Positions 1 through 45,833 of a stretch of DNA of 64,000 bases are shown in pieces; the stretch's first letter is position 1; every line of letters starts with the position of its first letter. The DNA is from Moniliella sp. 'wahieum' (Eukaryota): positions 372,001-436,000 of the forward strand of contig RSEE01000018.1 in assembly GCA_003971905.1 (NCBI GenBank). Direction: 5' to 3'. Both the position numbers and the translations under genes were made by a program. The notes under the pieces are model-generated. The model was not told the DNA's origin, did not search any database, and saw only the letters and a list, made by a program, of their open reading frames with translations.

Positions 1-170
1 AGGCCGGCCCAGGTTACGATGGGGTCCGGGCGGTGTGGTGGTGGACGAGGAGGTGGCGCTGGGCGAGCGCGCGATCGGGGTCGGAGGTGCCGCCGCAAGA
101 GCGGCAAGCGCCATGCGGTCGGTGGACGGCGGCGGGGCTGGGGATGGGTGTCGGAGAGGAGAGGCGGCAT
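1..170 (-). CDS. Possible 5' end of a Pro/Ser-rich gene running off the left edge
   Basis: ATG (CAT at 168-170) followed by low-complexity coding-like sequence (MPPLLSDTHPQP...; alternative frame ALAALAAAPPTPIARSPSATSSS). No domain visible. Confidence 0.3.
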   Translation of the reverse strand, partial: MPPLLSDTHPQPRRRPPTAWRLPLLRRHLRPRSRARPAPPPRPPPHRPDPIVTWAG

Positions 171-211
171 GCTGGGCGGGGGGCGGCGGCAGCAGCAGGA
201 GCGGTGGGGAA

Positions 212-280
212 GGCGGTGGCGATGGAATGGCGGTGGAATGGCGGTGGGATGGCGTGGGAATGGCGGTGGGAATGGGATGG
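212..280. repeat. 11-bp minisatellite (GGCGGTGGAAT-like, about 5-6 units) containing GGAATG/CATTCC motifs
   Basis: GGAATG at 224, 235, 257 and 269 and a GGGATG variant at 246. Confidence 0.8.
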
Positions 281-519
281 CGGCGACAGAGAAAAGATGC
301 TGGCGTGGCGATGGATGGATGGGTGGAGAGGGGCAGCGCGCTGCCAACTCCGCCTGGCGGCACGCGGCGGTCCGCGGCGACACGGGGGCAGCATTCTGCG
401 GGCTGCCGCCTGTCGCCCAGCCGCCCAGCGCAGCGCAGCGCAGGGCAGCACCCTGCCGCGCCTGGCCACCAGCCCGCCGCCCCAGACAGCCCCCGTGCCT
501 GGGTGTGAACATGGCTAGT

Positions 520-3470
520 GGCCAGTGAAACTTGCAACCAGCTGTCGCGACTCGTGACGCGTGACGCATGCAAGGGCAGCATCTCATGCATCATGCATGC
601 ATGCTGCTGCTGCGGCTGTGCGGTGCTCCGATACGCTGACACTCACACGCACACTGCTCCAGCAGGCAGGCCGCAGCATCGATCATCCGATCATCTCCCT
701 TGCATGCATGCGTCCAGCTTGCCCTTGCCGTGCTGCAACCAGCACGCGGCAGTGCTGGGGTGTGCTGCGCCCCATCAAGCATCCCATCGCCATGCAATGC
801 ATCATCACCCATCTGATCATGCACCTGCGCTCTGCTGCGCACCCACCGCTCCTCTCAGATCTCAGCACCGACAGCGATCGACACGCCGGAGCAGCGCCAG
901 ACAGCGCCGTTTCCCCGAGGCGGGCTCCGCTGCCAAGGTAGGTGGCCCTGTGCCTGCTGCTCCCAGCCGCGTACCACACAGCAGCGAGCCAAGCCGTCCC
1001 AGCATCGCCGCCACGGGCTGTCGTCGGGCAGCAGCAGCCAACAGCAGCCACATCTGCTGGCTAGGCTCTGGCTATGCTCTGGCTAGCTCTGGCGCTTCCC
1101 CCATCATCGGCCCCGCCGTCCTTAAATTGATGGGGAGTACTGAGTACCCCGATTGAGTACCGAGTTTCATCGGCATCGGCCCTGGCCGTCACGCGTCACG
1201 CGCCATGCACATGTGCGCAGTGCGTCAGTTACATGATACACGCTTACCGGCTTGGGTTTGTGAAACGCATTGTTCGGCTCGACACGAATGACCCAGTGCT
1301 TTGGCGTGAGTACGTGAGTAGATCTTAGCGCTTAGCAGGCTCTAGCAGCCCTAGCGCGGGAGGAAGCGCATGGAGTACGGGTGCCGGTGGCAGTGCGTCT
1401 GGACACCGTCTCCACCCAGCCCCCCGAAGTCCCAGGGCGGTGTGGAGCGGGTGGCGCGGAGCGCAGCCATCGCCATCGGCCATCCATCCATCGATCATCG
1501 ATCATTCAGATCGATCATCAATCATCGATCATCGGCCTCATCGACCACTGACTCATGCATTGATTAGCAGGACCTGGTACATCCGTAGCTAGTACCAGGC
1601 ATATCGCATGGAAATGGCTCCGACCTGCTCCAACCAATTGGAACAACCGCAGCGCTGACTCAAAGTTGAATCAAATGATCGGCTGATTCTAGGGTGACGA
1701 CCGGTGACCGGTGTTCAACGACCGGTGATCACATATGTCTGGAGCTCTTGAAGCTCTTGAAGCTTAGGACTAGCGCTGAGCAGCTCCGCGCTGACTAGCT
1801 CTGAATCAGACTAGTGACTTTCCCAACGTCGCCCTCTGCGGAGCACCGGCAGCACAGCACCAGCCCCGTGTCTGGCTCGCACGCCCAAGGTCTCAGTATA
1901 TTCTCAGTCTGAGAACTCAGTTGCCTGTCTTCAATCTGTATAACGCTCTAGCGCTGTAGCTAGCTTCAAGCTTCAAGCCGCCATCAGCCATCGATAATCA
2001 TGCATCAAGGTGTCAGGCCCTCAGGCCTCAGGCGTGTGGCGCGGTCTGTGGGCTTCCATCTGAAGTTTTTCAGTCGTTCGGACCGTTCAACGTTCAGACG
2101 CCTATGGAATTCAAGACGCCGAGCTCAGGAGACTAACTAAGTACTAATTCGACGACGACCCCGTTAGGACGTTCAACTTGAACGCCAGGCGATCAGACGT
2201 GGACTAGCTTTGCAATTGGGATGGAGCCTCAGCCTGAGGCCCTGGGAGCCAGAGGCGGAGCGAGTGTTCAGCTTGACCAACAGGCTTGTTTGCTTGCTGC
2301 GCGTCACCGGCCGCCGCAGAGGCGCTGCGAAGCTCGAAGCGCCACCATCAAGCTTCAGCCTTCAGCTTGAAGCTTGAAGCTTCCAAGTCCCGGACTTGCT
2401 CTCGTACCGCGTACCTGGACAGGCCTAGGGCCTAGGGCCTGGGCAACGCACATCGGGCCTGACGCCCGAGAGGTAATGATTACCTCGATTACCCACCAGT
2501 CTTTCCCCCAGCCGGCGGTATTTCGGAGGCGAAAACAGGCCGAGCCCCGCCGAACATCGAGCTGACGTTACGGTTACCATTGCATAGTCAGCGCGTCAAC
2601 ACCTTTTGCATTCCGCTCGCCCGTCGGTCATCCATTCGTTGCTTAGCCTAAGCGCTAAGGCTTAGCGCTTAGCGCTTATTACAGCCACACGTCACACACC
2701 ACAGATCACGGATCACGTGGTTTTACGTCACATCAAAAATCCAAACGAAGTAAAATTTAAGGCTGCCAAGTTGAACGTTCACGTTCAACCGAACAGTGTG
2801 ACAATGGTGTGACAGGGCAGGTGACATTGCGACATGCAACTGCCTGTCACGGTGACATTGCAGATCCGGCTATGCACATGGATCGTTGGTGCTGTGCATG
2901 GTCAAGCTCAAGCTGGACGCTGATGCTGATGCAGAGGGCAATGGTTGGAGGAGAGGGGATTATTGGTGTGCGTTGGGCGACCGCCCCCTTGGACACAGTC
3001 TGGACTGGCGGCGACCGGACGAGCTGGCTTGGAAGACCGTGGGAACCGGTGGGGCGTTGCTGTTGTGCTGTTCTGTCCTGCTCTGCCTGGACGCGAGAGC
3101 GGAAGTAAAACCTGGGGGGAACGTTGACGCAAAGGCACAATGCCAATGCCGCTTGGCCCGTGTGCAGGCAGGGAGGCCTGAGGCCTGAGGCCTGTCAAGC
3201 CCAAAACAATGGGCTCCTGGGCGCCACCCGCAGCCAGACAGGCCCCGTGCGTGGGGCCCGTCGCGCGCACCCCCTCATGGCCGCATGCCTGGGGCCTCGC
3301 CTGCTGCCAGCCCCTGGAGTGCCTCCTTGCACAGCGCCCCCTGCTCGTCTTCCCATCCCCGCGTCGCCCCTGCGCCGCCACGCGTCACCGTCACGCGTGA
3401 CACGTCTGGGATTAAGAATGCACTGCTGCGTTTGGTCTCTCTCAGCGCTCAGCCGCGCTGAGGCCTGAGG
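520..3470. repeat. Intergenic region dense in short palindromic 7-bp tandem repeats
   Basis: Examples: ATCGATCATCGATCAT 1490-1505, ACCGGTGACCGGTG 1700-1713, AGCTTGAAGCTTGAAGCTT 2364-2382, GCTTAGCGCTTAGCGCTTA 2660-2678, (AGGCCTG)3 3174-3194. The ORF track is nearly empty from 1570 to 2370. Confidence 0.8.
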
Positions 3471-3594
3471 GTGGATGCGTCCGAGCAGCCGCCATCACCA
3501 CCACCATCTGCCCGCGTCCGCCCATCATCCTCACCATCCCCACCACCATCCCCCCCCACCACCCCTCCCCTCTTCTTCTGCACGCCCAGGCCTA

Positions 3595-6500
3595 ATGGCG
3601 TCTCCCGCCGCCATGCGCGACGGCAAGGCTGCCAAGGTCGTGTACGTCCAGGGCGGGACGTATTTGATGCGATCGTCGCCATGAGCAACCCTGCCCATCC
3701 GCAGCACTCCGTCTACCAGGCCCAGATCGGGCCTCTGCTCACCCCCACCGCCACCAGCCCGCGCTCACCGCCCCGCTCTGGCCCGCGCTCCCACTCTCCT
3801 TCCCACTCCCACTCTCGCTCCCAAGAGCCGTCCCCCTCCCATGCGCAGAAGCGCCACTCCCCCCGTCACCGCTCCAGCCACAGCCCCAACACGCACCCTC
3901 GCTCGCCTCGCGTCTCCCGCGCCCGCGCCGCATCTCCCGCCGTTATGGGTGCGTCCTCTTGGGCGCCGTCGTCGGCCGTCATGGGTGCGTCACAGATGGG
4001 TGCCTCGGTCATGGGTGCCTCGGCGACCGCCAATCACACTGCCGGCTCGTCCGCTGTCCAGTCCCTCGGCCTGCGCAGCGGCTCGGCCCGCGCTACCAGT
4101 GCGACTGGCACCAGTGGTGGGCTCCCCCGCCCGCCCGCCAGTCCTACCATGCGGACACCTCGCCAACGAATGGGGATTGCGGTGAGCGAGGAGCGCTCGA
4201 CCTCTCTCCCCTTCACCCATTCTTCTGGTCTGTCTACCGTAGGCCATGCGACCCAACACACCACCGAGTCCTCCGCCTTCCTCACCATTGAGAACAGCGT
4301 GTCCGCCTTGCCTCCTGCCACGAAGTGCCGACGGAGCAAGAGCGCGACTCGGCGGATGCCCGTTCGGAGCGACACGCCGTCGATCCCAAGCTCCGCCACC
4401 CGCTCCCGCCCTGAATCATCCGATCGTCCAAGTCCAGAACTTCTTCTAGCTCGCGTAAGGTAGCCTCCTCACATGAGCCCAGTCTGTCGGTCCGGCGCAG
4501 CCTCAGAGTCGTCGCCGACTGGCAGGGACGCAATGCGGCATTCGCCTCGCGCTCCTCGGTAGCAGCGCTCTCCGAGGGGCCCCGCTCCTCGCCCCGGCGC
4601 GACGATACTTCCCACACAGGTTCGTCAGACTCATGCGTTGCCTCGTCCCTTTCCGCCGAGGCGCTTGACAAACACGTGTCCCATGCATCGACGCAGTCCA
4701 ATACCAAAACGGGGTCGGGAGCCCGCGGGAGCCGAGCGACCCAGCGCAAGCGGCGGTTGTGGCGCAGGCCAAAGCGAAGGCCCAGAATGTTCAGAAGAGC
4801 AAGGCAGCTCAAGAGGCCCGGCAACCCAGCCCGCCCCTTGTTCGTCCTACTGCCCATAAGGCAAACAAGTCGGCCACCTCGGCGCCCACCCTCGCGCATC
4901 AGTCTTCCATCTTCCTTGCGAGCACTGAAGATGCAACACGGCCACTCCCAGTCGGCCACATTCAATGCCGATCCACTTTGTCTACTCAGTCCCGCCGTTC
5001 GTCAACACGATCAGCCCGGTCTGACGCTAAGAACTCACCTCCAGCAAGTCTTCACAGTGTCCGTTTTTTCCCTAATTCTCGTCATTACTTATGCGCCTTG
5101 CCGTACTGACACCATCTTTTTAGCTCCACCGACACCAATCTCAGTCGTCTACCAAATCGGCTCACTCCGCCGGTACACCTGACTTGGAGAGAACAGTGTC
5201 CACGCCCACACCTGATCTATCCCTGGCAAGGCGGGTGGGCGGCACACGGGACCTACGACTGCGCCATGTCCCGTCGAAGCGATCGGTGCTGACTCGCGCC
5301 TCGTCCCAATCTGGTTCGTCGCACTTGCTGGACGAGTTTGGTAATTCTTCCCAAGCCGAGCCGAGTGGGTTAGATGCCGATGCGGAAAGCACAACCGGAA
5401 CCGACTCCATCAGCGCACCTTATTCTTCGTCCATCGCTCATCCTCACATGGGAGGGGACGATACCTGGTCCCTTACCCCCTCCATCCCCCGGGGTATGGC
5501 ATACGACGAACAACAACACATCTTTGTGATTGCTCCACCTCCCCCACGGGCTCCGCGTCTTCCGCCCTCCACGGTCAGTGGACCGACCCGGAAACAGACG
5601 GGCCCGGCCAAGGCGTTGGCACCTCCACAATACCGACTACTGCCCCGTCGCTTTCCAGTCGCCAAGGGGTGCCGGGACTGTCCGCGCCGCCTCCCATGCC
5701 AATCACTGGCACAGGACAAAGGGCGCCTGTGCCGGCAGAGTCAAGCCACCGTCGTCCCAAGTCCAGTCACACTCATCTCAATTCGGTCGAGCAGCGCTCG
5801 CTCCTAGCCAGCAACGAATACCACATCCCCTCTCGTCTGGATACGGGGCCGGGTCCCGAGCTTTCGAAGACCAATGTGGCAGGTACGCTGCCTGGGGTCT
5901 CGTCCGTCTCGCTGGTACCTGGGATGACAGGCCTCCGACGGAGAGGGTCTGTTCCCGCGGGACCGTCGCCGGTGCGTGCCATGCCACCTCCCCCGCTTCC
6001 GCTGCAGCTCGCGCGGCAATGCCCTCCAACGTCAACCCACCGCAGCACGGGACCGGGGGCAAGATGGCCGAACTTGGGGTCAAACTGCACTTTTTGTCAC
6101 GCTACCCCAAATCGGCCGGCCATGACGCGCCGCTGGCCCGAGCTGGGTGGGACCCGGACAATGGCTATGTAATCATTGACACCCCTCACGGAAATGAGTT
6201 GGTCGACACCCGTTCGCTTCTGTCCCAAGAGCAAAAGCAGCAGGATCAAGTGCACCTTGTTCTCCCCCTCGTCGGGCCAGTGCGCCGCCTGCGCGGGGCG
6301 ATGACGACTTGGTGGAGGACCTGGTCGAGCCGACTGTGCCGGGGCAGAACGGGCAACCCGGCAACGCTGGCCAACCCACGGCCGCTGAGCGGCTGTTGGC
6401 AGCCTACCGTGCAGGCCTTCCTCTGCCTTCGGATTCTGTTCATTCGCTCGTGTCTTCCACCCCTGGCGTCAGCACATCTGCCGTTGCTGCGGCGATCGCG

Positions 6501-12582: not shown

Positions 12583-14652
12583 TCATGGCACATGGGCGGG
12601 AAAGTTGGTACTTGGTCTTTGCCAGGTAGGCCCGACTCGACCTTGCCCGACAGAGGAGAAGAAAGAAGAAACAGCTTCAGCGGGATTGGGAAGGATGAGG
12701 ATGGGCTGCTGCGGCCGCCCTGGCCTCCGCAACGGCCGACGGGCCGTCGAGGGAAAAGCGCGGGTGGGAGGAGATGGAGCGGCGGAAGGGTGGGGCGGGG
12801 GCAGAAGGAAGTAACGGGGACGTTTCAGCGTTGCCTCCCGCGCCCACGCGCGGCTCGTCGGCGTCCTCCTCATCGTCGGACGACTCTTGCGGGATGTGGG
12901 ATGTAATGTCGTCGCCAAACACGACACCCATTCTTCAATCGGGACGCCAGCGGTTTCAGGGTAAAAAATGTAGACGGTCAAGACGGCAATGAGGCAAAAG
13001 AGCCGTGCATGGGGTACAAGCGCCATGTGATGAGGTCTTGAAGGATCGGTTGTCGTTTCGCCCCCGTAATAGTGCTGAGAAAGTTGACCGCTGTTGAGAG
13101 GGAGACGCCCTTGGCGCGAAAGGTGAGCGGCATAATCTCCGGACGGCAACAGCCAAGGGACCGGGCCAAAGGAGGCCCAAAGGAGAACGGTAGCAAATCA
13201 CCGACACAACGGTCAACTGAGGCGAGGAGAATGGAAGATCAAGCCAAAGGAAAAGCCCCGTGAGCATAAGAAAGAGGGGCCTCGAGCAGGCCACCATAGA
13301 TTAAGATGGGACGGGGCCCCAGCTGTCAATCAAAAACCACACGGGGATCGTTGAGCTGACATAAAGGCAAGCGTTAAGCCCAGTCATGAGCACGCTGTAA
13401 TAGAAACAGGTTAGTCCAACGACGGGGATCGATATGACCACTCACGTACCGTCTCTTCCTTCCCACCCTGCCCGTTCAAACAAGCGGGGGGCATAAAAGC
13501 TGACCACGTTAATCCCATTCATCTGTTGTTCCCGCAAAGAGAGGGGGGGTGTCAGTGAGACGAAGCGCCGAATGGGATGGTCAAAAACACAAACCTGCAA
13601 AGAATTGCTGCTGCAGGCTACGAGGACGCGGTAACGGTACCGCTTCCACATAGCCCGGTACGAGCGGTCGCCTTGTTCACGGAGGAAGAGGACATTTTCC
13701 TTGATTTCACGGTACTCGAGTCTGTGGGTGAGAGGAGACGGGTGGTCAGTGTGTTGTCGCACTCCCGGTTCTACTCGAGCGGCCAGAAATGACCTCTAAA
13801 GGTCCGGAAGGGAACGTACTTGGCGCGTTTGTTGTGAATCCGTCTTGTCACTGTGAAGTTCGACTAGAACGCGCATGGCGTCCAAGTCGCGGTCCTTGTC
13901 GAGCAAGTAACGAGGCGACTCGGGCAGCACCAACGTTCCCACGGCCAAGATGCAACCGACAATGACCTGGATGCTAAGTGGGAACCTCCAAGATACATCG
14001 CCTGCCATGAAACTTGCGCCGTACCCGATCCAGACACTGGGCATAACCGGTGATGTTGAGGGTGTACTCTATCGAGGCCAGGTAGCCACGATGCTCGGCG
14101 ACAGAGATCTCGCTTTGGTACATGGGTACGACCATGGTGAGGAATCCGACGCCAAAGCCGGCGATGGCACGGCCAGCGGTGAGCATGAACAAGTTGAGAG
14201 ACGCAGTCTGAAGAAGGCCCCCCAAACTGAAAAGAACGGCGCCCCAAAAAATGGTAGCCTTGCGGCCGATGCGGTCGGCGAGGGTGCCAGCGAGGAGGGC
14301 AGTGAAGAGAGCAGCAGGTCGAGAATGGCCACCACGGTCCCGATCTGGGCGGCGGGGGGGGTGGAAGTACAGGAGGAATGCGGGATGGACAATGAGGCTG
14401 GACATGACGCCCTGGTCGTAGCCAAAGAGCAGGACACCGAGCGAGGCAAAGATGGTGACGGCCATCATGAGGCGGGCGCCGCAGAGGCCGAGGCGGGCCA
14501 TGAGGGAGGTGGGGGCGGCGGTGGGGGGGAGAAGGGGGCATGGACGTGGTGCGAGCGGCGGAGGCGGTGGAGGCGGTGCGGCGGCGGGCGGTGCTGCTGG
14601 AGGCGACGGGGACGCTGCCATAGTCGAGGGGGACAGGGGGGGCGGAGGGCAT
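12583..14652 (-). CDS. MFS sugar porter family transporter (multi-exon)
   Basis: Sugar porter motifs: LLFGYDQGVMS, LADRIGRK, GRAIAGFGVG, VPMYQSEIS, PESPRYLL, QQMNGINVVSFYAP, PEIMPLTFRAKG, YPETAGVPIEE. Introns near 13400-13450, 13525-13595 and 13770-13820. Confidence 0.92.
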
Positions 14653-15023
14653 GGGGGCGATGGTGGTGGCGGGACGGATGGAGGGGGGGCGTCTGGGAGA
14701 AGAGGGACGGGCAGGGGGGCGCAGGACAGGCGGCCGAGGGGAGGCGCGGGCGCTGCTGGAACGACGCCGACGGATGTGGCGGAGACGCCCTCGGCGCGTG
14801 CCCGCACGCAAATACGCAGCCAGCAGCCTGCCCCTCAGCGCCGCAGAAACGCAAGCCCCGTCATTTAACCCAGCACGTGACCCTGCCCTGCCTGAAATGT
14901 TCAGCGCAGCACCCAACCCTAGCTGCCGCCCATTTGTAATCGTCGTCTGGCCGCCGCCCAGCCGAGCTGCCCGTCCGCCAGCACCCACCACCACCCCCAC
15001 CTCCGTCTCTTCCTCTGCGCACA

Positions 15024-16079: not shown

Positions 16080-16736
16080 TCAGCCTCCGACCCAGAGACT
16101 GAAAGAGGTGCAGGCATAGAACCAATTACTTGCGTGGGACTGGGGCTGGGGCTTGGGCAGACCATCGTAGAAGCGAGTGCGGTCCTCCGAGTGCAACGAC
16201 GAAAACACACCACGTGCGGCCGGGGCAAACGACTCGACCGCCTTGCGGATCTTGCGCACCTTTTCTCCCGACGACTGTAGCACCATATCCATCTTTTCCT
16301 CAATCTCATGCGGGCGTTTGCCCTTGCAGCTAACGACCTTGGTGTTGCCGTTGGCTGGGGCGCGCAACGGTGTGTCAGTAACGAGAAGGGGCGGAGGCCA
16401 ACATGGCGAAAAGGCGGGCCCGCCAAGCGGGGGAAGAAGCACGGTAGGGAGGGGAAGGGGGGACATACTGTAAAACCCGCGGATGATGGGGTGGGCGGTC
16501 GGCCTGTCCTGGACGACAAACTCGACAAACGGGTAGCGCTTGGCCAGCTGGACAAGCCCGAGGCGATGAAGGACGAAGTGGCGCATGCCCTCGTGCGACG
16601 CGTGGGCGTGGTTCACCTCCACCACCACCTTGCGCACCGGCATGAGGTAGGAGCCCTGGGGCCCACCGAGGGAGCGGGAGGCCCGGCTGATGAGCAGCTT
16701 GTCCGCACTTCGTGCCAACAGTAGGGGCCGCGGCAT
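16080..16736 (-). CDS. MRPL51: Mitochondrial ribosomal protein mL43 (yeast MrpL51-like)
   Basis: SYLMPVRKVVVE..ASHEGMRHFV..LAKRYPFVEFVVQDRPTAHPIIRGFY/TNGNTKVVSCKG..LQSSGEKVRK..VESFAPAARGVFSSLH matches the L51/S25/CI-B8 family mL43 pattern. Intron 16355-16468. Confidence 0.88.
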   Translation of the reverse strand: MPRPLLLARSADKLLISRASRSLGGPQGSYLMPVRKVVVEVNHAHASHEGMRHFVLHRLGLVQLAKRYPFVEFVVQDRPTAHPIIRGFYSMSPLPLPTVLLPPLGGPAFSPCWPPPLLVTDTPLRAPANGNTKVVSCKGKRPHEIEEKMDMVLQSSGEKVRKIRKAVESFAPAARGVFSSLHSEDRTRFYDGLPKPQPQSHASNWFYACTSFSLWVGG

Positions 16737-17474
16737 GATCGTCAACAGGCGCGCAGTCGTTGTACGGACCGAGCTCGGCAGAAGGCAGACGAGAGCACAA
16801 GAAGTCGAGCGAGCGGAAGGTGGCGGCCACCCGCATTCCGCCCTTCCAACTCTTCTTCGGCTTTCAAACTGCAACTTTCAACCAAACGACTGAAAGGTCA
16901 ACTTACCCAGTCGGCTCGACTGCAGGCATCACGTGGGACGGTCACTCATCATACATCACGCATGGCCTCCGGCTCAGGGCCTTACGCCAATGCCAAAACA
17001 CCTGGGATCAGATGCCCAGTATTGACTGCCACACTTTTGTGCACCATCGTAGCTCTATCCAGAGTGTGCCACCACCTCCGTCTATGGCATACGGAGGGAG
17101 GAGCAAGAGTGCCTTCCACAAAGAGGTGAGGTCCAATGCTTCGATCCAAGGCGCCTACAGCGAAGAGTGTGGCACGTACTATAATAACCGCCCCCGCCAG
17201 CTCGGCTCACAGCCCCCTCTCCCCCGCGCGCCCTCGCCATTCTGGTTTTGTGCCAACCCGCTCCGACATATAAGTGCACGACAATGGATGAAAGAGACAG
17301 AGGGAAAATGAATGCATGGAATGATTAATGATGAGGGAGGGATGACATACACAAAACCGAGACCGTGTCGAACAAAACAGATGCGCATGACGCGCCGACC
17401 GGAATGAAGCCGCCGCCAAAACCGTCTCCAACAAGAATGAATATACAACAGAACAGCTCCAAAAAGGAATAGAA

Positions 17475-19450
17475 TCACCGCTTCCCCCCAATCGCCCTGG
17501 TCCTTCCGTCAAGCTTCACCCCCGGGCTTGCGCCGCTGGAGAGCCAAGAGACAACATCAACGTGCACGGGCCTGCGCAAAAGGGGGTCATCTTGTTCGCG
17601 CAGCTCCTGGACCCGAGTCAACAAGTGGTCCCACAGCCGGTCCAACACCATCGTTGCGGTTCCCGGAGAGAAGCGGGCGTGGATACGAAGCACGTGGCGC
17701 AAGTGCGCGTCGTAGACGGTTTTTACGAGTTCGACCAGCTCGGTGGCAAACGCGCCATCCGTCAGCATGCCATCGCGCAAGCCTGTCCAGGCTGGGTGGA
17801 CGATCCGGGTGGCAGCATACTCCGCATTGGGCCAGGGGCCTGGTTCATCTCCAGCGAAGATGACGGAGCCGAAAAGTCTTCCTCCATCTCTAGACCACAG
17901 GACCAGACTACGTCCCAGTCCTGCTGGGACGCCAGCAGGGCGGCGGTACGAGTATGCTGGGACGAGCGTAAGTAAAGCGGACGGGCAAGCATGCGTCTGG
18001 CCACATCGGGGGTGATAAGGGCGGTGGAGGGAGACGAGGCGCTGGATGCAAGGGGAAAGGAGCGTTGTCAGCGTGCCCAAAATTCGTATGTATCTTCCTC
18101 ATCACCGTCAGACTTTGGTGTGAGGATGGGGCGAACATGAGGTAGCTTAACAGTATCGCGGTGGGGAGTGGACGGAACGGATTGCTGGCGCGAGGAAGGG
18201 GAAGATGAAGACGAAAATGAAGATGAGATGAAGATGAGGCAGCAAGATAAGACCACACCCCACTGGTAAACTCAGCTGCACGAGCCGAGAGGAAGGAGGA
18301 CAGCTCCTGGTCAGGCTGTGAGCCGGGTTCGGAACCGATGGGGAGAGAACTTGGGAACGATGGGCAGCGAAACGAGGGGGAAGAGGTGCGGGATCGGTAT
18401 GCATGGTAGTCTCTTGACCAGTCACCGGTGACTGAGATTCGTTGGCACTCTTCCGGCTGGGGTCGTGGCTTCGGTCGCTCCCACATTTGGTGTGGGGAAA
18501 AGGAAAAACGCTGCTCCTGTTGCACTGAAGGGGACGTTAACGGATGCGGAGAGGGCAACCATACCGTTGAGGGAAAGCCACCGGAAAATGGAATGTCCGA
18601 TAATTCACTGGGAGTGGTGGGGAAGGGGCTGGGGCCCCATGGTGCTGGCACATGAACAGCACGAGGATGGGCCCAATGGAGGTCCATCAGACAAAGACCG
18701 AATCGAACGGTTCCTGGCGGGACAACAGGCACGCCGAAGGGGCGAGTCGTGTAGGTTTCAAAGGTGTGGTCCACCAAGTGGGGGAGGCCAACGGTGCTGT
18801 GATATCGTTGGTCTTGTTCATGGATGGTCATCACTTCACGAAAATCCGTACCGGGCATGTCCGTATGAAGAAAGAAAAGAACGGTGCCGCAGGATCCAAA
18901 TTTCCTTCGGAACTCATCTGGGCCCGATAGTTGGCCGAAAGCGTGAAGAAAACGCGTGAAGGAGAGGACCTCCACGTGAGTGCAAAGCTCCATATTCGAC
19001 GGCAGTGATCGTCTCCCCCGCCTCTGGCAGGGGAACATGATCCACAAGTGAATCTAACACTTCTAGCACCTTGAGCCTTAGACCAGGGATAAAATGGCCT
19101 ACCCCTCCTGCCCACGCTTGCCGTTTGATCCGGAGTGTGCGCAACAGTATTGCGATCGGGGAAAGTGTGCAGAGAGACATGGGGATAGTTCTAGCACGAG
19201 GACGACTGCTCGTCGTTTGGGCACCACTAGAGAAACGTTCGATAAAGCCATTTGATGGTGTGAGCCCTCAGAATGGCAATAAGAGGAGATGTCGATAGGG
19301 TCAAGCAGCGAACCTTGGGTCGAAGACGGACGGACTGGGGGCGTCCCAGTGCCAGCAGGGCAAGCAGAGAGTGGAGCCGATGCTGAGGAGGATGTATCGG
19401 TGTTGGTGGGGAGTGAGACGCCAGAGAGGAGTTAGGCCGGCCAGGCGACA
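17475..19450 (-). CDS. Hypothetical protein or degenerate gene with globular-looking segments
   Basis: Minus-strand ORFs 17475-18080, 17908-19047 and 18914-19180 contain complex, amphipathic sequence (FATELVELVKTVYDAHLRHVL; CTHVEVLSFTRFLHAF). No family recognised. Confidence 0.35.
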
Positions 19451-22439
19451 AGCTGTGGCCAAGGCCGGGCGTTCAAGTCCGAGGAAGGCCACAGAATTAG
19501 CCCAGGATGGGGCATGGGCGGGCCGGGTGAGTAAATAACGATGCAACAAAAGAGGTCGCATAAGTGTAGGCTGTGAAGCGGCACCGCGACATGGCCGCGT
19601 ATGCGAGGCGGTTTTGGTAAGCGAAATAGTCACTGTTGCTATTGTTGGTTGAGCGGCAGCTGTTTCCATTTTCAACGGTGCTCGGAGCAGAAGGTGTTTG
19701 ATCGTAGGCAGACAAAATAGGGACGGATGTGTGACCAATGCTCCGCCGGGGAGTGTGTTGAGGATTCCGGAAGAAGGTCGGGAAGGCCATCGCTTTGGTA
19801 CTTGGGGATGGGGGGCTTCCAGCGGAGACTGGAACGGGAAGGGAGGATGCGATCGCCCTTTGGCCCATTGGCTCCCCTACTAGGGGCGTGCTAGGCTCAT
19901 CGGATGGGCTAAGTGCAGGCAACTGAGGACTGCAGGGAGGGGGCATTGGAGCTAGTACTGGCGATGTGGGAGGGACTTGGGCTTGGCGTCGATGGGAGGG
20001 AGAGGCATGGATATGGCTGGAAGTCAGACGGTGTAGGCGGTGAGCCGCCGCAGGTAATAGGTTCGGCGTACGGCATATACGTGACGGATTGAGGGTGGGG
20101 GCATACACGCCAACAGGGACGGGAGCGCACAGAGAGAGGGGCAGGGAAACGGCGCCCACGTATGCTGATGGGGATCCAGATCGACGTGGGTAAGGGGCCG
20201 CGGTGGTGGTGGCAATGGCAGTGGGCGCAGCAAGCGAAGTCGCAGTAGCCGGGGGGGGGAGGAGGGGGGAGGTGGCGAAGAAGAAGTAACGAGAGAGGCG
20301 ATGATGCAGTGGAAGTGTACCGACAGCTCGGCTTGGCGTAGGTGGTGTGTGATGTGGGTTGCGAGGGACCTGAGGCACGTTATTGACCGCTGAGTCTCAG
20401 CGCTGCGCGCGGAGCTGAGCCCCTCAGCTGAAACCGGGGCCCGCGAATATACTCTGGCAGGCTATCGGGGGGAGTGCTCCGCCAGCGCAGCGCCAGTGTG
20501 GACAGAGACGTGCACTGGCGCACTTGGCCACCCCAATCAACACCAGGGCCCGTTCCACAGGCAACAGTAACTCTGGTAACTAGTAACACTGATGTACTGG
20601 TGGCCCAAGTGCTGCGCTGCGTTGCAGGGCGGCCGTTTGCCGTGGAAGTGCGAGTCAAGATCTGAGACCCAACCCTCAGCTTGAGAGGCCTGTCGAGAAA
20701 CCAGTCGCTCCCTCCAGCTCTCGCCACGTCTGCCCCGTCACTGCCATCGTCTATCGCCTATCTCTTCCCTCGCCCTGAGGCCTGATCCATGGCCCATTGC
20801 CCAGCGAACGCGAAGGGTCGAACGGTAACGCGTCGGACACACCAAATGCCCACCGCCCTGCTTGCGCCGCGCCCCGCCCGTGCCGCCCACACAGCCGAGA
20901 AGCTCGCGAGCTCCCACTCACGTGCCTTTCGCAACACTCTCCGGCTCGAGAAACCCACCCGGGATACTGTCACCCCCATTTTCGCTCTTAAAAACAAAGA
21001 TTACCCCCCCGTCTCACTCTTCCCTCTTTTGCTCCCCTCCACCTAAATGGTGTGGTTAGCCCCTCTCCCGAGGGAGCACGCATATATACTGAGAAAAGAG
21101 TAGAGTAATATAGGTTTTACGCACCCCAGCTGTTTCGCGTAGTATAGCTTCCGCGATGCATCATGCGTCTCTCAAACGCGCTTCCGTTGCTTTACCCCCC
21201 GCTCGAGCTGAACAATCTGATTTGTTTGGGGAGAGATGCGGGGGAGTATTAGTGTGCACATGACTATGTCCGCTGTCGTCCGACCCTCTTTGGCGCCCTA
21301 TGTCTCTGCCAGGCTCCTCTCTTGGAATAGAGCCACCAAAACAACTCATCTCTTTCTCGGGAGCCCTGAATTATGGTCACGAGGGATTGACCCCGCGGTC
21401 AACGTCAGAGTAGGACAAGAGAGTTGTCACCAACACGTATATATAACCCCGAGATGCCCGGAATCATACGAGGAGAAACTCACAGTTTTGAGGACACAGG
21501 AGGAAGGGTGTACAGTATTCCTTTTACCTACTCATGATCGGGGTATGTCGGTCGACTCAGTGGAAAAAGCAATGTGCTGATGGTTGGATTCGTTGTGATA
21601 CTAGAGATCAGAGAAAAAAGGGGGGGGGAAAAACCAAGGAAAAAGGCGGCGCAGTGAGCAGGAGCACGCCAGCCGCTGAGGCAAGCATGGGCCCATGTGA
21701 TGCGTCTCCAAGAGGTGACGCAAAGAGCGGCTACAAGTACCGAGAGCTCCAAAAGGGAGATGAAAGTGAGGCGTGGAGGAGACGCGCGCGATGATGGTGG
21801 AAAGGTCGGATCCACCAAACCAATACTTAATTTCCCACACTCCGAAGCTCTCTGGCTGTGAGCTTTGGACGGCCTTGGGAATGGCAGTTGGGTGCTGTTG
21901 GTGCTGTTTGTTGACTGTGACCCTCCGGGTTCCAGTCGGTAGACCAGGTTCCCTCGGTTCCATCTGTTTCCACGCTGCGGATATCGTCTCAGCGTGTGGC
22001 ACTGTCCCTGGCCTTGCATTCTTCTATGTAATACCTCACTGGCCTGTGCCTAGTCCGGCCTCCTATCTAGATGCCTCTGTAACATGTAACTAGACTCAAC
22101 TGGGGCACCAATCCATCACCTTCTTCTCATCCCTCTGCCCATCCGGCTCCCTAGGCCAACACTGTTGTCATCACCACTGTGGATCCCATAGAGCTATACA
22201 TGGATGAGTTCCATCTTGTGATTGGGGGCAGTAGTAGTGCAAATTGCCGCCATCGCTGGCCATGAACAAATGAACTTCGAAAGAGAACCAAATGTTCGAC
22301 ATGGCGTGCCGCCGGACGTACGCGGGGCAGGGCCGAGTTACGTCAGCGCTTCGAAGCCTGGCCGACCAGCCCGGCCCGTCGTATCAGCAACGGACCACGA
22401 CCTGCTCTACTTTTGCCGCCAGCCTCTTGTGTCCCAGAA

Positions 22440-23364: not shown

Positions 23365-23779
23365 GCCTGCCATGTCTCTTTTCCATCCGACCCCATTGCA
23401 AGGGGTTCGACTCGGTGAATGGTAGATGGCGACGATGCATGCTGGTTGGTGTCCTAATTTAATCGCTCCCGCCTCGGTCACCTCGGTGATAAAATGATTG
23501 CATTTGCCCTAGTACCAGACGGTGATCGATGATCAGCTTTTCCCAGATGGTCGATGACAGATGAGGTCGATGAGACTGATAACGACCAGAACGGTAAATG
23601 AGAACGTTTTCACCTTTCGATGTCAGCCTGTTAGAACGCTCTCATGCCCGTCGACGGACGTCAAGGCGACCGCCGGACACTTCGTACTGCAAAAATGCGT
23701 TGGCGTGACCCGGTCCGGCCTTTCAAGCCAAATTTGAAAGTCGGCATTAGGCTTCCGTGTCGAATTTACCCCGCCCGCT

Positions 23780-26700
23780 TAAGCTTGATCCCGCGGGCTG
23801 GCATCATGCGTCCCGGCCGTGTTGCTCCATTTCCGTCGGAGCGGCATTTCGAATCTCCCAACGGCCGACGTCTGTCCCACAGCCACCGCTTCTGAACCCG
23901 CTCCGCACCGCTCTGCCGCGGGGGAACGGAGCGGATGGGTACAGTTGGGTAGGATATTGTCTGTGTGGGAGCTGGGGGGCGGGGCATGGGGGGCTGTATA
24001 TACGAGATTCAACAGGCAAGGCCAGAAGCCGACTACGCAAGCTCCTGAGCAACAGGACACAAAATGATTTGGAAGCTGTTGGGGTACACATGAACAGGAA
24101 TGAGCACAGAGAAGGTATATGGGTGTGCCCGCCAGCGCCACAACCAGGTCTCCAGGGACAGAGGGGATGGGCGAGACACGTTGGCCCACCATGGCTCGCG
24201 CGGCAGAGGGCAGGGTCAGCGAGGAGGGCGGCTGGGCCAGTCGGCGATGACACGCATCGACGGCACGCACAGTGCGCTGGGTGGGCAGATGCGTACTGCC
24301 GCGAAGCTGGGCCAGACGACGCAGTCGCGCGGTGGCGCTGGCGCGGATCTGGTCCCAGTCCACCGCGGCTTCCGGGCGCAGGGGGGCTGCGGGCCCATCC
24401 TGAGGTTCCGTCCCAGCGCGAGTGGGAGCCCGAGCAGGAACCTGGGCAGGAGATTGGGCTGTGGGCCCATCCGGAGGTTCCGGCCCAGTGCGGGTGGGGG
24501 CCCGAGCAAGAACCTGGACAGGAGATTGAGCAGGAGACTTGACAGAAGGTTGAGCAGAAGGCTGGGCAGAAGGCTGGGCAGAAGGCTGGGCAGAAGGCTG
24601 GGCAGAAGGCTGGGCAGAAGGCTGGGCAGAAGGCTGGGCAGGAGGGGAGACAGCAGGAGACTGAACAGGAGGCGGGGCAGCAGGAAACTGAACAGGAGGC
24701 GGGGCAGAAGCCTGAACAGGAGGCGGGGCAGAAGCCTGAACAGGAGGGTGGAGAGCAGAGGGATCTGGCTTGGCTAGCGACAGCGGGGCAGGGCCACTCG
24801 TCTCGCCGCCCATCTCGCCACCCGCCCCGCCGCGAGTCTCGTTGCGAGTCGCAACGTGATCCAGGGTGGGAGATAGAACGATCGGTGCGGAACCGGCAGC
24901 GGATCGACGCCCGCTGGGTCAGGTAAGGCAGGTCGGCCTGGCGGAGCTCTGGACGGAGCTCTGGACGAAGCTTTGGACGAAGCTTTGGACGAAGCTTTGG
25001 ACGAAGCTCTGGACGACGCTCTGGGCGGAGCTTGCCTTGGAGCTTGCGTTGGAGCTTGCCCTGGAGCTTGCCTTGGAGCTTGCCCTGGAGCTTTCCTTGG
25101 AACTTTCCTTGGAGCTTTCCGGGGAGCTTGTCGAGGTGCGGTGGCGCAGGGGCAGCCGGGGCGGTGGGAGCTTGGTGCTGGAACAGGGGGCGAGCATGGG
25201 GCCCCGTGTGGGTCGAGGGGACAAAGAGCAGTCGGCGCGGGGGGCGGTGGGAGTGGGCGGTCCCGCGAGCGGTGCCGCGAGCGGTACTGCGAGGGGCAGC
25301 CCGAGCTGGAGCGGCACGACTGGATCCGGCAGCTGGGATGCGGGGGAGAGGTGCAGCGTGAGCGGGTAAGGGGGAGGGAGAAGAGGAGGGCGAGGGGAAG
25401 GGCGAAGTGGGAGGGCGAAGAAGGCGAGCGGGAGGGACGAGGACGTTTGCCCAGGACCGAGGCAGACGGGGCGCCATGCGCTGGCACCGGGGCGGGATGC
25501 TGGACCTGCGGTCGGGGCAAGGCTGCGTGTGGGGGGAGCACGTGCGCCGCCGAGGCAGGAGCAGGGGCGGGGAGCGGGTTCCAGATCGTGGGGAGGGAGG
25601 AGAGTGAGCTGGAGAAGGTTGTCGGTGCGCTCGACGCGGGTGCGTCGTCTGCGCCTGGGGCAGAGGTCTCTTGCGAAGGGGCGGCATGCGCGCCAGGCGC
25701 GTCGCGAGGCGGAACGAGGCTCGGATGAGACGCCGCGGCCGGGCTGGAGGAGGAGCGGGACCCTTGGGTGCTCCGCTCAGCCTCGGCCTGGGTAGCTTCG
25801 GCGGCGGGCGGAGGCGTGTCGAACTCAAATGACGATCCTTGTACCGAGACTGGGGACGGGAGGGAGGAAAATACCTGCGACAGCGGTTGGGAAGGGAGCG
25901 GTCCAAAGGGTGGGTACTCGATGCTGGGCTGAAAGTCGCTTGGCGCGCAAGCCGTTCGCGGGCGGGGGCGGGGCAGGGCAGGGCGGGGCGGGGAGCGGGT
26001 TGGAGATTGAGGAGGGGGGCGCCGATGAGAATGAGAATGGGGGAGGGCATCCGCATGCTGATTGGCTTGACGTAGTGTGGCAGGGGGAACAGCGCGCTGA
26101 TACGTCGGTCGGCAGATGCCGTCGCTGGGCCCGGGAAGATCGAGAAGTTGAGGCGGTGGCGGGTGCTTGGACAGAGGAGCCGGGCGCAGGGAGGTGGACC
26201 GACGGGTCCGAGAGGGAGGGCATGGTGACGGAAAGCGAAGACGGCTCGGGGAGATGCAAAGAAGAGTCGGTGCTGTCGAGAGCGGGGAGCGCGCTTGGGC
26301 CGAAAGAACGGGACCTTGCGAGGCGCTGGGACGGGGCATAGCTTGCCCCGGCGGAGGCATGGACAAGCTTTCATCCAACCGGAGCGAGCGGCTGGCTTGG
26401 GGCGCAGCAGGTGCAGAGGCCGACGGCACAATGCTGGGCTGGGAGACCAGTGCCGATCCTGAGGAGGACAGGGAGGAGCGTCGCAGCTGGGACACCAACG
26501 ACGGTGGAGAGAGAGGATGCTAGGCGGAGGCGGGGCGGCGGACACGGGTTTTTCCTGGCTCGGCTCGGCGCTGGACAAGGAGGATTCGGATGCCAAAACG
26601 TCATCTCCATGGCAGCGGCCAGAGGAGACAAAGGAAGGGTTGGAGGAAGCCGGGTGAGCCGACGCAGCGCCAGCGGGAATGGGTGTGGGAGCCAGAGCGC

Positions 26701-27921
26701 CACCGTCAGGAGCAAGGGCATGATGGCAGACCAGAATCCGGATGAGCGGTAGCAGCATTGGCAGCGGCAGCGGCAGCAGCCGGAAGTGCCTCTTTGGCCA
26801 GGCTTGCACGCTCCGCGCTAGATGCTTCGCCTCTTCTACCTCCGGCCCTGACGAAGCAACGGGGAACGCAAGCGGGTTGAAGAAGAGCGGTGCTGGGTTC
26901 TCAGGCAAGGGGTTCAGGCTGCGTTGCTCGGCGGCCGGGTTGGACCCAGGGGCGCGGGACTGGGTAACGAAGGAAGAGGAGCGACGTCCCTTTTTGCGTT
27001 TGCCACGGTGAGGACGACGGCGTTTGGACGAGGGAGGGGCGTCGCTCTGGCTCGCAAGCGACGCGTGAAGGAGAGAAAGCAGGCCGGGCGCTCCACTGGA
27101 CGTGGCGGTGGAGGGAGCAAACGAGATGGTGGACACGGTGGTAGCCTGCTGCTGGGCAGCCAGGAGGCGACGCTGATGAGAGCGAAAAAGGCGGTAAGAC
27201 GTTCACGCACCAACCGATTCGCTTCCTGCCTTCGCCCATGGACCAAAGCCACTTGGAGCCAGTCCAAAACGCTTCTTCCCCGCGCCGCCTAGGTAGCGGA
27301 ACTTGTCGCAGTGCACGACGAGCGTGGCCGTCGGCGTGGTGGGTGCATGGTCGGGCTCGGCCATCAGCAGATGAGCAGGGGGGGGAAAACCCTGCTTGCC
27401 TGTAGGAACCGCTGTGCCTCGATCGGCGGTTGGCCCAGCTCGACCCTCACACTGGACAAAACTAGGATCGCACCTCGCAGAGACGAGACGGTACGGACGG
27501 GGTGCCGAGCGTACGCCGATGGCTTGCAGGCGCAGGGTTCAGTCAGGGGGTGGGGACAAGGAGAGGGGAGAGGGGAGACGGGGCCTGGCAAGGGCAAGCA
27601 AGGGGACGTACCGAGGAATTCGGCCACAGCCGTGGCGGTCAAGTGGACCACCACCATGGCTTCGGGGTCGGACGCGACCAACCAGAAGGGCTCCTCCTGT
27701 CGGGAAGGCCCATGGCAAAACGTGAGAAAGCGGAAGACTGGACCAATACCGCCCCGATCGAGGCGAGCGCGTCGGGGCCCTCGCGTGGACGCTTGGTCAG
27801 GCCGGCAGAGCAGGGGGGTGGCTTGGCTAGTTCCGGGCCGTTGTCGGATGCCGGCGACCGCCAGCTCGTAGCCGCGGGGGAGAAGGCGCTCGCGCAGCCA
27901 CGGACGCAGATGGACGCTCAT
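23780..27921 (-). CDS. TPP1/Tpz1/Est3-family telomeric OB-fold protein with a long low-complexity C-terminus
   Basis: N-terminus MSVHLRPWLRE..VFRFLTF..FWLVASDPEAMVVVHLTATAVAEFL..SSLRGAILVL..VVHCDKFRYLGGAGKKRFG follows the TPP1/Est3 OB-fold pattern (LxPWI, hxSD, RGAI, FxxLGxxG). Introns near 27510-27610 and 27320-27395. S/P-rich minus-strand ORFs continue to about 23800-24270; continuity as one gene is inferred. Confidence 0.6.
24387..25130 (-). repeat. Coding tandem-repeat cluster: 72-bp x2, 12-bp (SAQP)n, 24-bp (VQASAPPP)n, 12-bp (ASSK)n, 12-bp (APRQ)n
   Basis: 24387-24530 two 72-bp units; 24531-24640 GCTGGGCAGAAG repeats; 24650-24750 CTGAACAGGAGGCGGGGCAGAAGC units; 24943-25020 GAAGCTTTGGAC; 25027-25130 GGAGCTTGCCTT. 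All unit lengths are multiples of 3. Confidence 0.9.
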
Positions 27922-28870
27922 GAGGAAGACGGGCGCAGGGAGGGTGCGGGTGGGGAGACGACGCAGCGGGCGGGGACGCGTCGAGAAGCGCCAGGCGCGG
28001 GTGGCTGCCCGTCCGATCATCGACACCCGCCTCTCATCGCTCCTCGCCCCTCGCGCATCGATCACGTTGGTCACGTGGCTGGGCCGAGAGCGCGTCGCAA
28101 ATGAAATCTTGCAGCCCGCGCGACCTGGCACTTGGGGCGTCTTACTAATCGCCCGTCCCGCCGCGCCTCTCGTCTCAGATCTCACTGCGTATACGCGACA
28201 CGAAGCAAGCTACAGGAGGCTGGCTAGGCGGTAGCCCAGCGTCGCATCTGCCTCTACACCATCCCGTTCCACCTGAGCGTCGGAAAGCGCGGCCAGAGCC
28301 ACGCAAGAATCGAACATGCCTTCACTGAAGAGAACGACACAAGAAAACAAGCACACCAGGAGCCAAGGGAGGGAAGAAAGAGAGGAGAGAGGGAAGAAAG
28401 GAGGTAACACGCAATGAGAAAAAGGGAAGCACGCCGCGCGGAAGGGGGAGAGAACAGAGGTGGCGACCTGCGCTAGCCGTGGTATGCAGTAGCAGCGATC
28501 TATCCACTGCTGTCGTGAGGTGCGCGCCGTGACAAAAGTCGAAACAAAAAAGAGAGAAGACCAACAAAAAGTAGCTTGAAGGTGAGAGTGAAGAGGAAGA
28601 GGCTTGCAATAGCAAACGACCAACGAGCGACAAAAAACGACGTGGCGTAAAGCAACGAGAAACGCGACACATCACCGCCCAACAGAGTACACAGCGCAGT
28701 GGGGGAGCAAGCTCAGGAAAAAAAAAACAAAAGAACAAGCGACGACCGTGCAGGGGAGGGAAGAAGGACCCAGGTCGAAGGTAGGGGTCGGAGGCTGGGG
28801 GCGCCAGCCGTCCATAGCGCATGGTATGGGAAACACGAGGAAAAAGTGGGGGTGGGGGTGGGGGGATGGA

Positions 28871-39408: not shown

Positions 39409-39804
39409 GGCGGTGGCGGTGGGGAGAGCATCCACGCCCCCAGCAAGGGGGCCGCGGCGACGCGTGAGCGCGGTGGGTGAGCGTCGGCGTGGCGCCGCCC
39501 CCACCGGCGGGCTGGGGGCACGGCGCCAGTCTTGCGCCCCGCTGCGCGCGCCCGCGGGCGGCGTGCATTAGCGCTTGCTTAGCGCTTAGGTCTTGCCCCG
39601 GCGCACGGCGTTGCACCGAGTGGGTGCATTACGTACGCAGGCACGGCGCACGGCCCGTGGACGCCCGCCTGAAACGTTCAGGGGCGGCGCCCAACAACAC
39701 GCGCCGCTGAAAAACGGCTGAGGTCAGCAACTTTTGCTGCTGCTGGGCTGCGCGCCGATCGGCTGCTGGACCCCCACCGCTCCTCTTCCCGCCGGCGTGC
39801 TGGC

Positions 39805-45799: not shown

Positions 45800-45833
45800 A
45801 GCAGTGGAGCAGTGGAGCAGTGGAGCAGTGGAG
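45800..45833. repeat. 8-bp tandem repeat (AGCAGTGG)4
   Basis: Direct reading of 45800-45833. Confidence 0.85.

Follow-up and report, generated by a model that had tools for sequence, protein, structure and literature searches.

Excision of hAT, Transib, RAG, and MULE elements leaves hairpins on the flanking DNA, which are opened by a host nuclease and sealed by end joining, with footprints as a frequent outcome (PMC5499845). Ac/Ds footprints in Candida and yeast carry palindromic P nucleotides and comprise few dominant products, and microhomology between the opened hairpin ends is common in fungal Ac/Ds excision (PMC5873905). Basidiomycota also carry hAT7 and Kyakuja transposons, both with 7-bp target duplications (PMC12730594). 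Here we describe a set of short heptamer arrays in a 64,000-nucleotide stretch of DNA from the basidiomycete fungus Moniliella sp. 'wahieum' (assembly GCA_003971905.1, contig RSEE01000018.1, positions 372,001 to 436,000; hereafter, the window, in whose coordinates all positions are given). In these arrays, a 7-bp stretch centered on T-N-A is directly duplicated, and an arbitrary 4-bp palindrome stands at the junction of the two copies. We tentatively read them, at rather less than even confidence, as repair scars that most resemble the footprints of a cut-and-paste transposon that forms hairpins and makes 7-bp target duplications. We take such a transposon, or a nuclease derived from one, to be the most likely agent, with a preference for a few open intergenic regions. 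We found no description of heptamer arrays built from TNA and a palindromic tetramer in the open-access literature searched. All counts rest on this single 64-kb window, which has a G+C content of 62%.

Direct duplication of a T-N-A-centered heptamer

The original prediction for this DNA was that intergenic arrays of period 7 are built from palindromic hexamers beginning with A and ending with T (A-N4-T, or A class) plus one base, and period-7 repeats with the expected hexamer were present in 22 of the 22 intervals that it named, each holding one to three complete hexamers. Perfect period-7 arrays of at least 13 bp number 74 in the window, compared with 16 to 20 in Markov-1, -3, and -5 simulations. 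A palindromic hexamer occurs in 32 of these 74 arrays, where about 2 would be expected, and belongs to the A-N4-T class in 31 of the 32 (0.13 to 0.38 expected; maximum of 4 in 200 simulations per Markov order). Exact hexamer-N-hexamer 13-mers with a spacer of 1 comprise eight of the A class and one of the C class, and exact pairs at spacers of 0 and 2 to 6 total 0 to 4 per spacer, without class bias. The pattern as first observed is confirmed and lies far outside chance. Dyad-symmetric units were enriched at period 7 only (32/74 versus 11.6% of random units) and were at or below expectation at periods 5, 6, and 8 to 12.

The unit is best read, however, as TNA plus a 4-bp palindrome, in which TNA forms a direct repeat resembling that of a target site. 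The A-N4-T rule is this fixed T-N-A core seen from the other side, and both points had been overlooked. The sequence TNA, palindromic 4-mer, same TNA occurs 44 times in 64 kb versus 1.17 times expected (Markov-3; maximum of 4 in 60 simulations), whereas the same TNA frame around a nonpalindromic 4-mer was not enriched (19 versus 15.8 expected). Neither fillers of 2 or 6 bp in the TNA frame nor the cores CNG, GNC, and ANT were enriched in the window, and symmetric fillers of 3, 5, or 7 bp showed no specific enrichment. The palindrome itself is nearly unrestricted: 14 of the 16 palindromic tetramers occur, one to six times each and with roughly even use, and only ATAT and TATA are absent. The non-pure-AT hexamers occur as predicted, but pure-AT tetramers are present as well (AATT three times and TTAA once). 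Self-BLAST revealed no dispersed repeat family, as the arrays share no flanks and each is unique; the idea of a process indifferent to the inner sequence thus stands. Since 14 of the 16 tetramers are used so evenly, the palindrome must arise through copying or through base pairing, in the manner of P nucleotides.

The variable base N discriminates further. Of 53 TNA-palindrome-TNA 10-mers, 44 carry the same N on the two sides, 4 carry complementary bases, and 5 carry some other combination. The arrays are therefore direct duplications and not fold-backs, which disposes of the fold-back or template-switch synthesis proposed earlier, since it predicts a complementary N. Of the two alternating dyad axes that had been described, the even one is broken at N, so that the description is only approximate; for the same reason, we rejected the idea that the 7-bp period stems from a double dyad. 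A same-base repeat at a fixed distance points instead to a target-site duplication. The same bias is visible without reference to arrays, as A-N4-T hexamers occur 220 times in the window versus 148 expected, and the bases flanking them are the same in 105 cases, complementary in 37, and otherwise different in 78, so that the entire excess is of the same-base kind. In hexamers of the C, G, and T classes, same and complementary flanking bases are equally frequent. By hand count, 33 of the 44 direct 10-mers have G or C as N. Single violations of the 10-mer pattern number 74 versus 31 expected; only 11 of these break the tetramer (6.6 expected), against 44 perfect motifs, making the center the most perfect part.

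Counting arrays of at least 11 bp (n = 47), we found lengths of 11 bp (8 arrays), 12 bp (8), 13 bp (13), 14 bp (2), 15 bp (6), 16 bp (3), 17 bp (3), 18 bp (1), 19 bp (2), and 22 bp (1). The mode is thus 12 to 13 bp, and most arrays contain fewer than two full units, with a majority holding one complete hexamer rather than the "about 2-3 units" first reported. Among the 43 arrays with a direct 10-mer, lag-7 identity one base past the mismatch is 0.33 to 0.37, against a local background of 0.31 to 0.33. Because identity is at background one base outside, the arrays are sharply bounded and are not remnants of decayed longer arrays. They are also centered on the palindrome, since 10 of 13 run-6 hexamers split 2+3 or 3+2; centering and sharp ends had likewise gone unremarked. 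In a hand tally, extension past N by 1, 2, 3, and 4 bases occurred 18, 12, 14, and 2 times on the left and 17, 13, 14, and 6 times on the right. The drop after three bases on each side marks the edge of a 7-bp duplicated block, and the arrays are most naturally framed as two copies of the 7-mer b'a'TNAab, usually incomplete at an outer end. All 10 of 10 13-mers in the phase predicted by the model below read [a'TNAab] b' [a'TNAab], in two forms seen six and four times, and 12-mers read [TNAab] b'a' [TNAab] or its mirror image. Complementary flanks are present at about two-thirds or more of arrays, compared with 25 to 32% of single TNA sites.

Distribution within the window is strongly uneven. 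Three 2-kb bins (6 kb in all, within 1-4000 and 46001-48000) hold 31 of the 44 motifs, and the density in these hot regions is about one array per 130 to 200 bp. Both array-rich stretches are intergenic, and one lies just upstream of a Sec7/PH gene. The motif rate per TNA site is alike in the low-, middle-, and high-GC thirds (2.7, 2.1, and 2.1%). In a rough comparison of coding and intergenic DNA, the Pfam-supported coding sequence (6,738 bp, with 171 of the 1,863 TNA sites) holds none of the 44 motifs, against an expectation of about 4.

For a control, we used 374,875 bp of unrelated metagenome sequence from loci that carry (AGGCCTS)n; the scan for this repeat gave 120 loci, mostly with one array each. 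Once the seeded AGGCCT arrays are left out, array counts by class in this control are 11 (A), 22 (C), 37 (G), and 9 (T), with no A-class bias. Since A-class arrays are not favored there, the grammar belongs to the Moniliella genome. Three control loci (L037, L001, and L052) hold two further arrays each, too few to judge. L037, a contig of 52% GC, has three arrays of the same grammar within 1.7 kb, namely, TGA+ACGT, TCA+GGCC, and TCA+AGCT at 4497-4510, 4999-5020, and 6122-6135; these may be the same phenomenon in another organism, in numbers too few to judge. In the L001 contig (5,040 bases), period-7 arrays of 12 bp or more number 121 and include palindromic hexamers of each of the four classes; this contig represents a different, far denser heptamer-repeat genome.

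Proposed excision scars and other possible origins

An excision mechanism that would yield such arrays can be set out step by step. A transposase-type enzyme would insert its element at s1 s2 T N A s6 s7 by a staggered cut of 7 bp, producing a 7-bp target-site duplication, and excision of the element would leave both flanks as covalently closed, perfect hairpins. A host nuclease would then open each hairpin 2 nucleotides past the tip, as is usual for nucleases of the Artemis/Pso2 type, giving 4-nucleotide 3' overhangs. Nucleases of this type are stated to open the hairpins left by such excision (PMC5499845, PMC5873905). The overhangs would be self-complementary (left, s6 s7 s7' s6'; right, s2' s1' s1 s2) and would anneal with each other, for subsequent ligation, only if the 7-mer were an odd palindrome in which s2 pairs with s6 and s1 pairs with s7. 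The expected product, s1 s2 TNA [s6 s7 s7' s6'] TNA s6 s7, would represent a net gain of exactly 7 bp. Full compatibility of the overhangs would generate two complete units, a match of the outer pair alone would generate a heteroduplex resolving to either form of the 13-mer, and incompatible overhangs, with one kept and the other trimmed, would generate the 12-mers. Repeat hits at one site, or later slippage of units, could produce the few arrays of 17 to 22 bp. Hairpin opening and repair at TNA, one of the processes first suggested, comes close to this model.

The products predicted in this way agree with those observed. The model would account for the period, the identical N, the acceptance of any palindrome, the centering, the 7-bp frame, and the strictly 4-bp filler. 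Its proposed need for compatible overhangs would also explain why arrays are in excess at TNA sites with complementary flanks, and the clustering of 31 of the 44 motifs fits a regional insertion preference. Because there is one scar per few hundred base pairs with almost no decay, the event rate per TNA site would have to approach the point-mutation rate; by rough estimate, such a rate (about 1e-3 to 1e-4 per genome per generation) would be attainable for an active transposon.

Several observations weigh against an origin by transposon excision. No element with 7-bp TNA-centered duplications and inverted ends was found in the window (seven weak candidates lacked the TNA center), a search of the window for TNA duplications with inverted ends gave 0 candidates, and 387 stop-free open reading frames (ORFs) of at least 90 amino acids contained no DNA-transposase domain, only a decayed retrotransposon integrase. 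Classical hAT elements do not fit in detail, as they have an 8-bp duplication and an odd-centered footprint, in contrast to the even 4-bp palindrome seen here, and the T and A positions of these arrays differ from the hAT target consensus. The 47 arrays in the window amount to a very high density for footprints. Two full units in an exact 14-mer (3+3) were never seen, and seven arrays of 10 to 11 bp have a tetramer unrelated to either flank, which P nucleotides fail to explain. Finally, the excess of complementary flanks must be carried by the overhang-compatibility step, which is itself part of the proposal.

A possible, if unlikely, alternative is a host process without a mobile element, in which a nuclease, unknown or domesticated, would make TNA-centered breaks with a 7-bp stagger or hairpin caps that are then sealed by end joining. 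Such breaks might be placed in particular open regions, for example, recombination hot spots. All the evidence for staggered-break and hairpin geometry applies equally here, and the lack of a visible transposon in the window and the very dense, regional occurrence of events sit well with it. In its fullest form, which we hold to be unlikely to the same extent, this would be a new site-selective break-and-repair process, run by a domesticated transposase or unknown nuclease and not by an ordinary transposon, that continually writes short palindromes into chosen promoter regions through a TNA-centered 7-bp stagger and hairpin-capped ends. However, we know of no nuclease making breaks of this kind, and 64 kb is too small a window to exclude a transposon elsewhere. 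Furthermore, a duplication can form only where a stagger is filled in or an insertion intermediate exists, conditions that transposition provides naturally.

Replication slippage or flap misprocessing that favors or retains hairpin-capable 7-bp units would make the arrays a special class of microsatellite, which we consider doubtful. The same regions do hold many micro tandem repeats of period 8 to 12. Moreover, the mutated unit TCC CATG stands twice at 47869-47885, and on this account slippage probably adds units secondarily. The fixed T-N-A is nevertheless unexplained by slippage, given that CNG, GNC, and ANT cores are not enriched and that dyad-symmetric units are found at no other period. 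Slippage would be expected to give multiunit arrays in arbitrary phase with decaying flanks; the arrays instead mostly fall short of two full units (exact two-unit 14-mers are 2 of 47) and are centered and sharply bounded, with flanks that show no decay. Of the 10 arrays that were folded, four longer ones reach -4.4 to -5.2 kcal/mol (z of -0.3 to -1.9 versus shuffles), which speaks for slippage, but the other six, all of 13 to 15 bp, have energies between 0 and -1.8 kcal/mol (z from +0.3 to +1.0) and fold no better than their shuffles.

We rank next, as also doubtful, footprints of the PIF/Harbinger type, in which TNA would be a 3-bp target duplication and the palindrome would consist of 2 nucleotides from each inverted element end. 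These elements characteristically duplicate a TNA target, in which the middle base is free (PMC4561436, PMC12730594). The exact 3+4+3 frame with identical N fits this reading, as do seven minimal 10- to 11-bp arrays with unrelated flanks, and remnants derived from element ends would be palindromic automatically. On the other hand, Harbinger/mPing excision is described as normally precise, and the rare footprints retain both duplications, without mention of end-derived bases in the passages concerned (PMC4561436). Near-equal use of 14 tetramers would call for many families with different terminal dinucleotides, and the in-register extension of 2 to 3 bases past the 10-mer on both sides of most arrays is not predicted. 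As stated above, TNA duplications with inverted ends were not found in the window.

It is improbable that the arrays are promoter elements maintained by selection, either as sites of a dimeric factor or as a cruciform-prone or nucleosome-excluding structure. Their clustering in two intergenic regions, one of them just upstream of the Sec7/PH gene, would suit such a role, as would the near absence of point changes in the tetramer noted above and the occurrence at two loci of GTAAAATTTAA followed by AACGTT units. No single factor, however, fits 14 tetramers that are used about equally often. A symmetric dimer would be expected to favor a complementary N, which is 11 times rarer than an identical N, and a reader of direct repeats would need no palindromic spacer, yet nonpalindromic spacers are not enriched. 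Selection for a cruciform-prone structure, also raised in the original prediction, is not borne out by the folding energies of typical arrays (6 of the 10 folded).

An assembly or base-calling artifact is very improbable, since the known systematic sequencing errors are homopolymer or 1-bp errors, unlike sequence-specific 7-bp duplications with a palindromic junction that involve 14 tetramers in unique, complex sequence.

If the arrays are excision footprints, they form an unusually dense and legible record of transposon traffic in a genome, from which the target nnTNAnn, the 7-bp stagger, and the 2-nucleotide hairpin-opening rule can be read without seeing the element. Excision alone could then populate promoters with new palindromes of 6 bp, which is the shape that dimeric-factor sites typically have, and by rough estimate would create them at a rate per TNA site near that of point mutation. 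If no transposon is involved, the pattern defines a new, precisely specified mutational process, and a true break-and-repair process of this kind would act as a built-in source of palindromic cis-sequence as well as constituting a new mutational signature.

Arrays, genes, and other content of the window

Arrays are given here by core and tetramer, in order along the window. The left-hand stretch opens with TGA+CGCG at 553-567 (15 bp), TCA+TGCA at 584-598 (15 bp), TCA+TCGA at 677-687 (11 bp), TCA+GATC at 853-865 (13 bp), TGA+GTAC at 1135-1147 (13 bp), TCA+CGCG at 1187-1202 (16 bp), and TTA+GCGC at 1324-1336 (13 bp). A degenerate TCA+TCGA run at 1489-1534 includes two perfect arrays (1489-1505 and 1521-1534) and is followed by TGA+CCGG at 1699-1713 (15 bp), TGA+CTAG at 1809-1819 (11 bp), TCA+AGCT at 1962-1978 (17 bp), TCA+TGCA at 1997-2007 (11 bp), TCA+GGCC at 2019-2033 (15 bp), TCA+ACGT at 2084-2096 (13 bp), and TAA+GTAC at 2136-2147 (12 bp). 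The minimal 10-mer TCA AGCT TCA at 2348-2357, with unrelated flanks, lies close to TGA+AGCT at 2364-2382 (19 bp), and an exception, (GGCCTAG)n at 2422-2440, has the tetramer GGCC with a core of TAG in place of TNA. Two GCGC arrays with opposite N abut at 2648-2678 (TAA at 2648-2659 and TTA at 2660-2678). Beyond them are the longest array, TGA+GGCC at 3173-3194 (22 bp), and, at 3391-3400, TCA CGCG TGA, a rare perfect palindrome with complementary N (the other complementary-N cases are at 2772, 18422, and 54231). TCA+GCGC at 3441-3453 and TGA+GGCC at 3458-3470, both of 13 bp, complete this stretch.

Arrays are sparser in the middle of the window, where we found TGA+TTAA, with a pure-AT tetramer, at 17320-17332 (13 bp); a second minimal 10-mer TCA AGCT TCA with unrelated flanks at 17509-17518; TAA+CTAG at 20576-20587 (12 bp); TGA+GGCC at 20774-20785 (12 bp); TAA+CATG at 22078-22090 (13 bp); TGA+TCGA at 23523-23534 (12 bp); TCA+GATC at 28173-28184 (12 bp); two TCA+TGCA arrays (31685-31695 and 31708-31720) in a degenerate run at 31685-31720; TTA+GCGC at 39577-39589 (13 bp); TGA+TGCA at 42947-42962 (16 bp); and TCA+TCGA at 43078-43088 (11 bp). 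The second array-rich stretch holds TCA+CCGG at 46101-46115 (15 bp), TTA+CCGG at 46383-46393 (11 bp), TCA+ACGT at 46765-46782 (18 bp, within a longer degenerate ACGT run), and a degenerate TCA+CATG run with the point variants CACG and TCG at 46940-46974. It continues with TTA+GATC at 47056-47067 (12 bp), TGA+AATT at 47086-47096 (11 bp), TGA+TGCA at 47267-47279 (13 bp), TGA+CCGG at 47497-47510 (14 bp), TGA+AGCT at 47550-47561 (12 bp), TGA+CTAG at 47841-47853 (13 bp), and, at 47869-47902, the run (TCC CATG)x2, TCA CACG, TCA CATG TCA, which contains the duplicated mutant unit. Toward the right end are TCA+CATG at 54162-54178 (17 bp), TCA+GGCC at 55095-55110 (16 bp), and TGA+CATG at 60609-60623 (15 bp).

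The 10-mer TAA AATT TAA at 2751-2760 lies inside GTAAAATTTAA, an 11-mer that stands again at 46750-46760, with the 10-mer there at 46752-46761. In both places (the 2750-2790 and 46750-46790 regions), heptamer units of the AACGTT type follow within 12 bp; the combination may represent either a promoter element common to the two sites or a small repeat. The regions 400-3600 and 45800-48110 are also rich in nonpalindromic tandem repeats of 8 to 11 bp in two to four copies, examples being CGATCATC x2 at 680, AGCTCTTGA x2.4 at 1743, AGCAGTGG x4.4 at 45800, and GTGAGCGT x3.9 at 48076. Some of these tandem repeats, such as TCAGTACT at 46138, contain TNA and a palindrome with one or two extra bases.

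A Pfam scan of the stop-free ORFs (13 + 137 + 150 + 87) supported five genes and one retroelement piece, a low yield for 64 kb of a fungus. On the minus strand are a sugar transporter (13799-14834), a protein with a mitochondrial L51/S25 domain (16083-16877), an RBBP4/CAF1C WD40 protein (33176-34856), and a TEA/ATTS factor (62894-63439); the Sec7 and PH protein (49524-52203) is on the plus strand. Proteins nearest to the transporter are those of Pseudozyma flocculosa, Malassezia, and Tilletia (46 to 53% identity). The Sec7 protein has fungal relatives at 23 to 31% identity across most of its length and none among the metagenome contigs. These matches place the organism among the basidiomycetes, probably in Ustilaginomycotina, and not among the algae; the collections searched contained no close sequenced relative. 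Three-base GC periodicity is weak across most of the window. Tandem repeats with nested periods of 72, 24, and 12 bp, in up to 9 copies, at 24384-25130 lie inside a 1,132-amino-acid open frame on the minus strand (23804-27202), which has no Pfam match and is likely a repetitive, low-complexity protein or else noncoding. Strand asymmetry is marked over 8 kb at 24001-32000 (GC skew of +0.14 to +0.29; AT skew of up to +0.23) and is about 0 elsewhere. A 75-bp inverted repeat with arms 80% identical (56594-56667 and 58816-58887) encloses about 2.1 kb, including an Integrase_H2C2 match (E value of 2e-14) at 57928-58365 that is interrupted by stops and frameshifts and represents a decayed long terminal repeat retrotransposon integrase. 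We rejected this inverted repeat as a DNA transposon because it encloses the decayed retrotransposon piece.

Comparison with known systems

Footprints of Tc1/mariner elements resemble these arrays in being scars of fixed length, made of a duplication, a short palindromic remnant, and the duplication again. Their remnant, however, comes from the element ends, with one sequence per family, and their TA duplication gives a period of 5 to 6 in place of 7. V(D)J coding joints and the related Transib-RAG reaction share the off-center opening of perfect flank hairpins, which yields arbitrary even palindromes, but coding joints have no target duplication, Transib duplications are of 5 bp, and these are animal systems. 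PIF/Harbinger elements share the 3-bp T-N-A repeat, identical on both sides and free in its middle base, but they excise precisely, and the relevant passages describe no 4-bp palindromic filler (PMC4561436). At our locus, the arrays do show a 3-bp TNA repeat of the kind such a duplication would leave; the tetramers, in turn, are 14 in number and similar in frequency and not the few remnant sequences that element ends would supply.

Within the same phylum, Basidiomycota, hAT7 and Kyakuja have the right duplication length, and hAT7 groups with Ac and Tam3; these elements are reported, in the parts of the survey that treat them, from Pucciniomycotina and Agaricomycotina and not from Ustilaginomycotina (PMC12730594). 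Footprints of hAT elements, including those of Ac/Ds in yeasts, resemble the arrays in keeping both copies of the target duplication as a direct repeat and in having hairpin-derived, palindromic P-type nucleotides at the junction, few dominant products, and joining by microhomology (PMC5873905, PMC5499845). They differ in that the hAT block is of 8 bp and not 7 and that the hAT joint is centered on the complement of the base adjoining the element, whereas an even 4-bp palindrome is seen here (PMC5873905). In the arrays, the retained direct repeat is evident from the same N in 44 of 53 10-mers and from a lag-7 repeat of 3 to 8 bases bounded at the 7-bp block. A joint derived from flanking DNA is likewise indicated by the 44 palindromic cases versus 1.17 expected, yet the seven 10- to 11-bp arrays have unrelated tetramers. 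Unlike in hAT footprints, the fixed bases are the T-N-A in the middle of the block, and no element is seen in the window. An 8-bp hAT model minus one base was considered and rejected, as the spacer was the complement of the base outside the array in 6 of 11 13-mers by hand count, near the 45% that chance would give. The density of arrays is, to our knowledge, far above any known for excision footprints. If these arrays are indeed a footprint record, it is one of a known kind, unusual in its density and its legibility.

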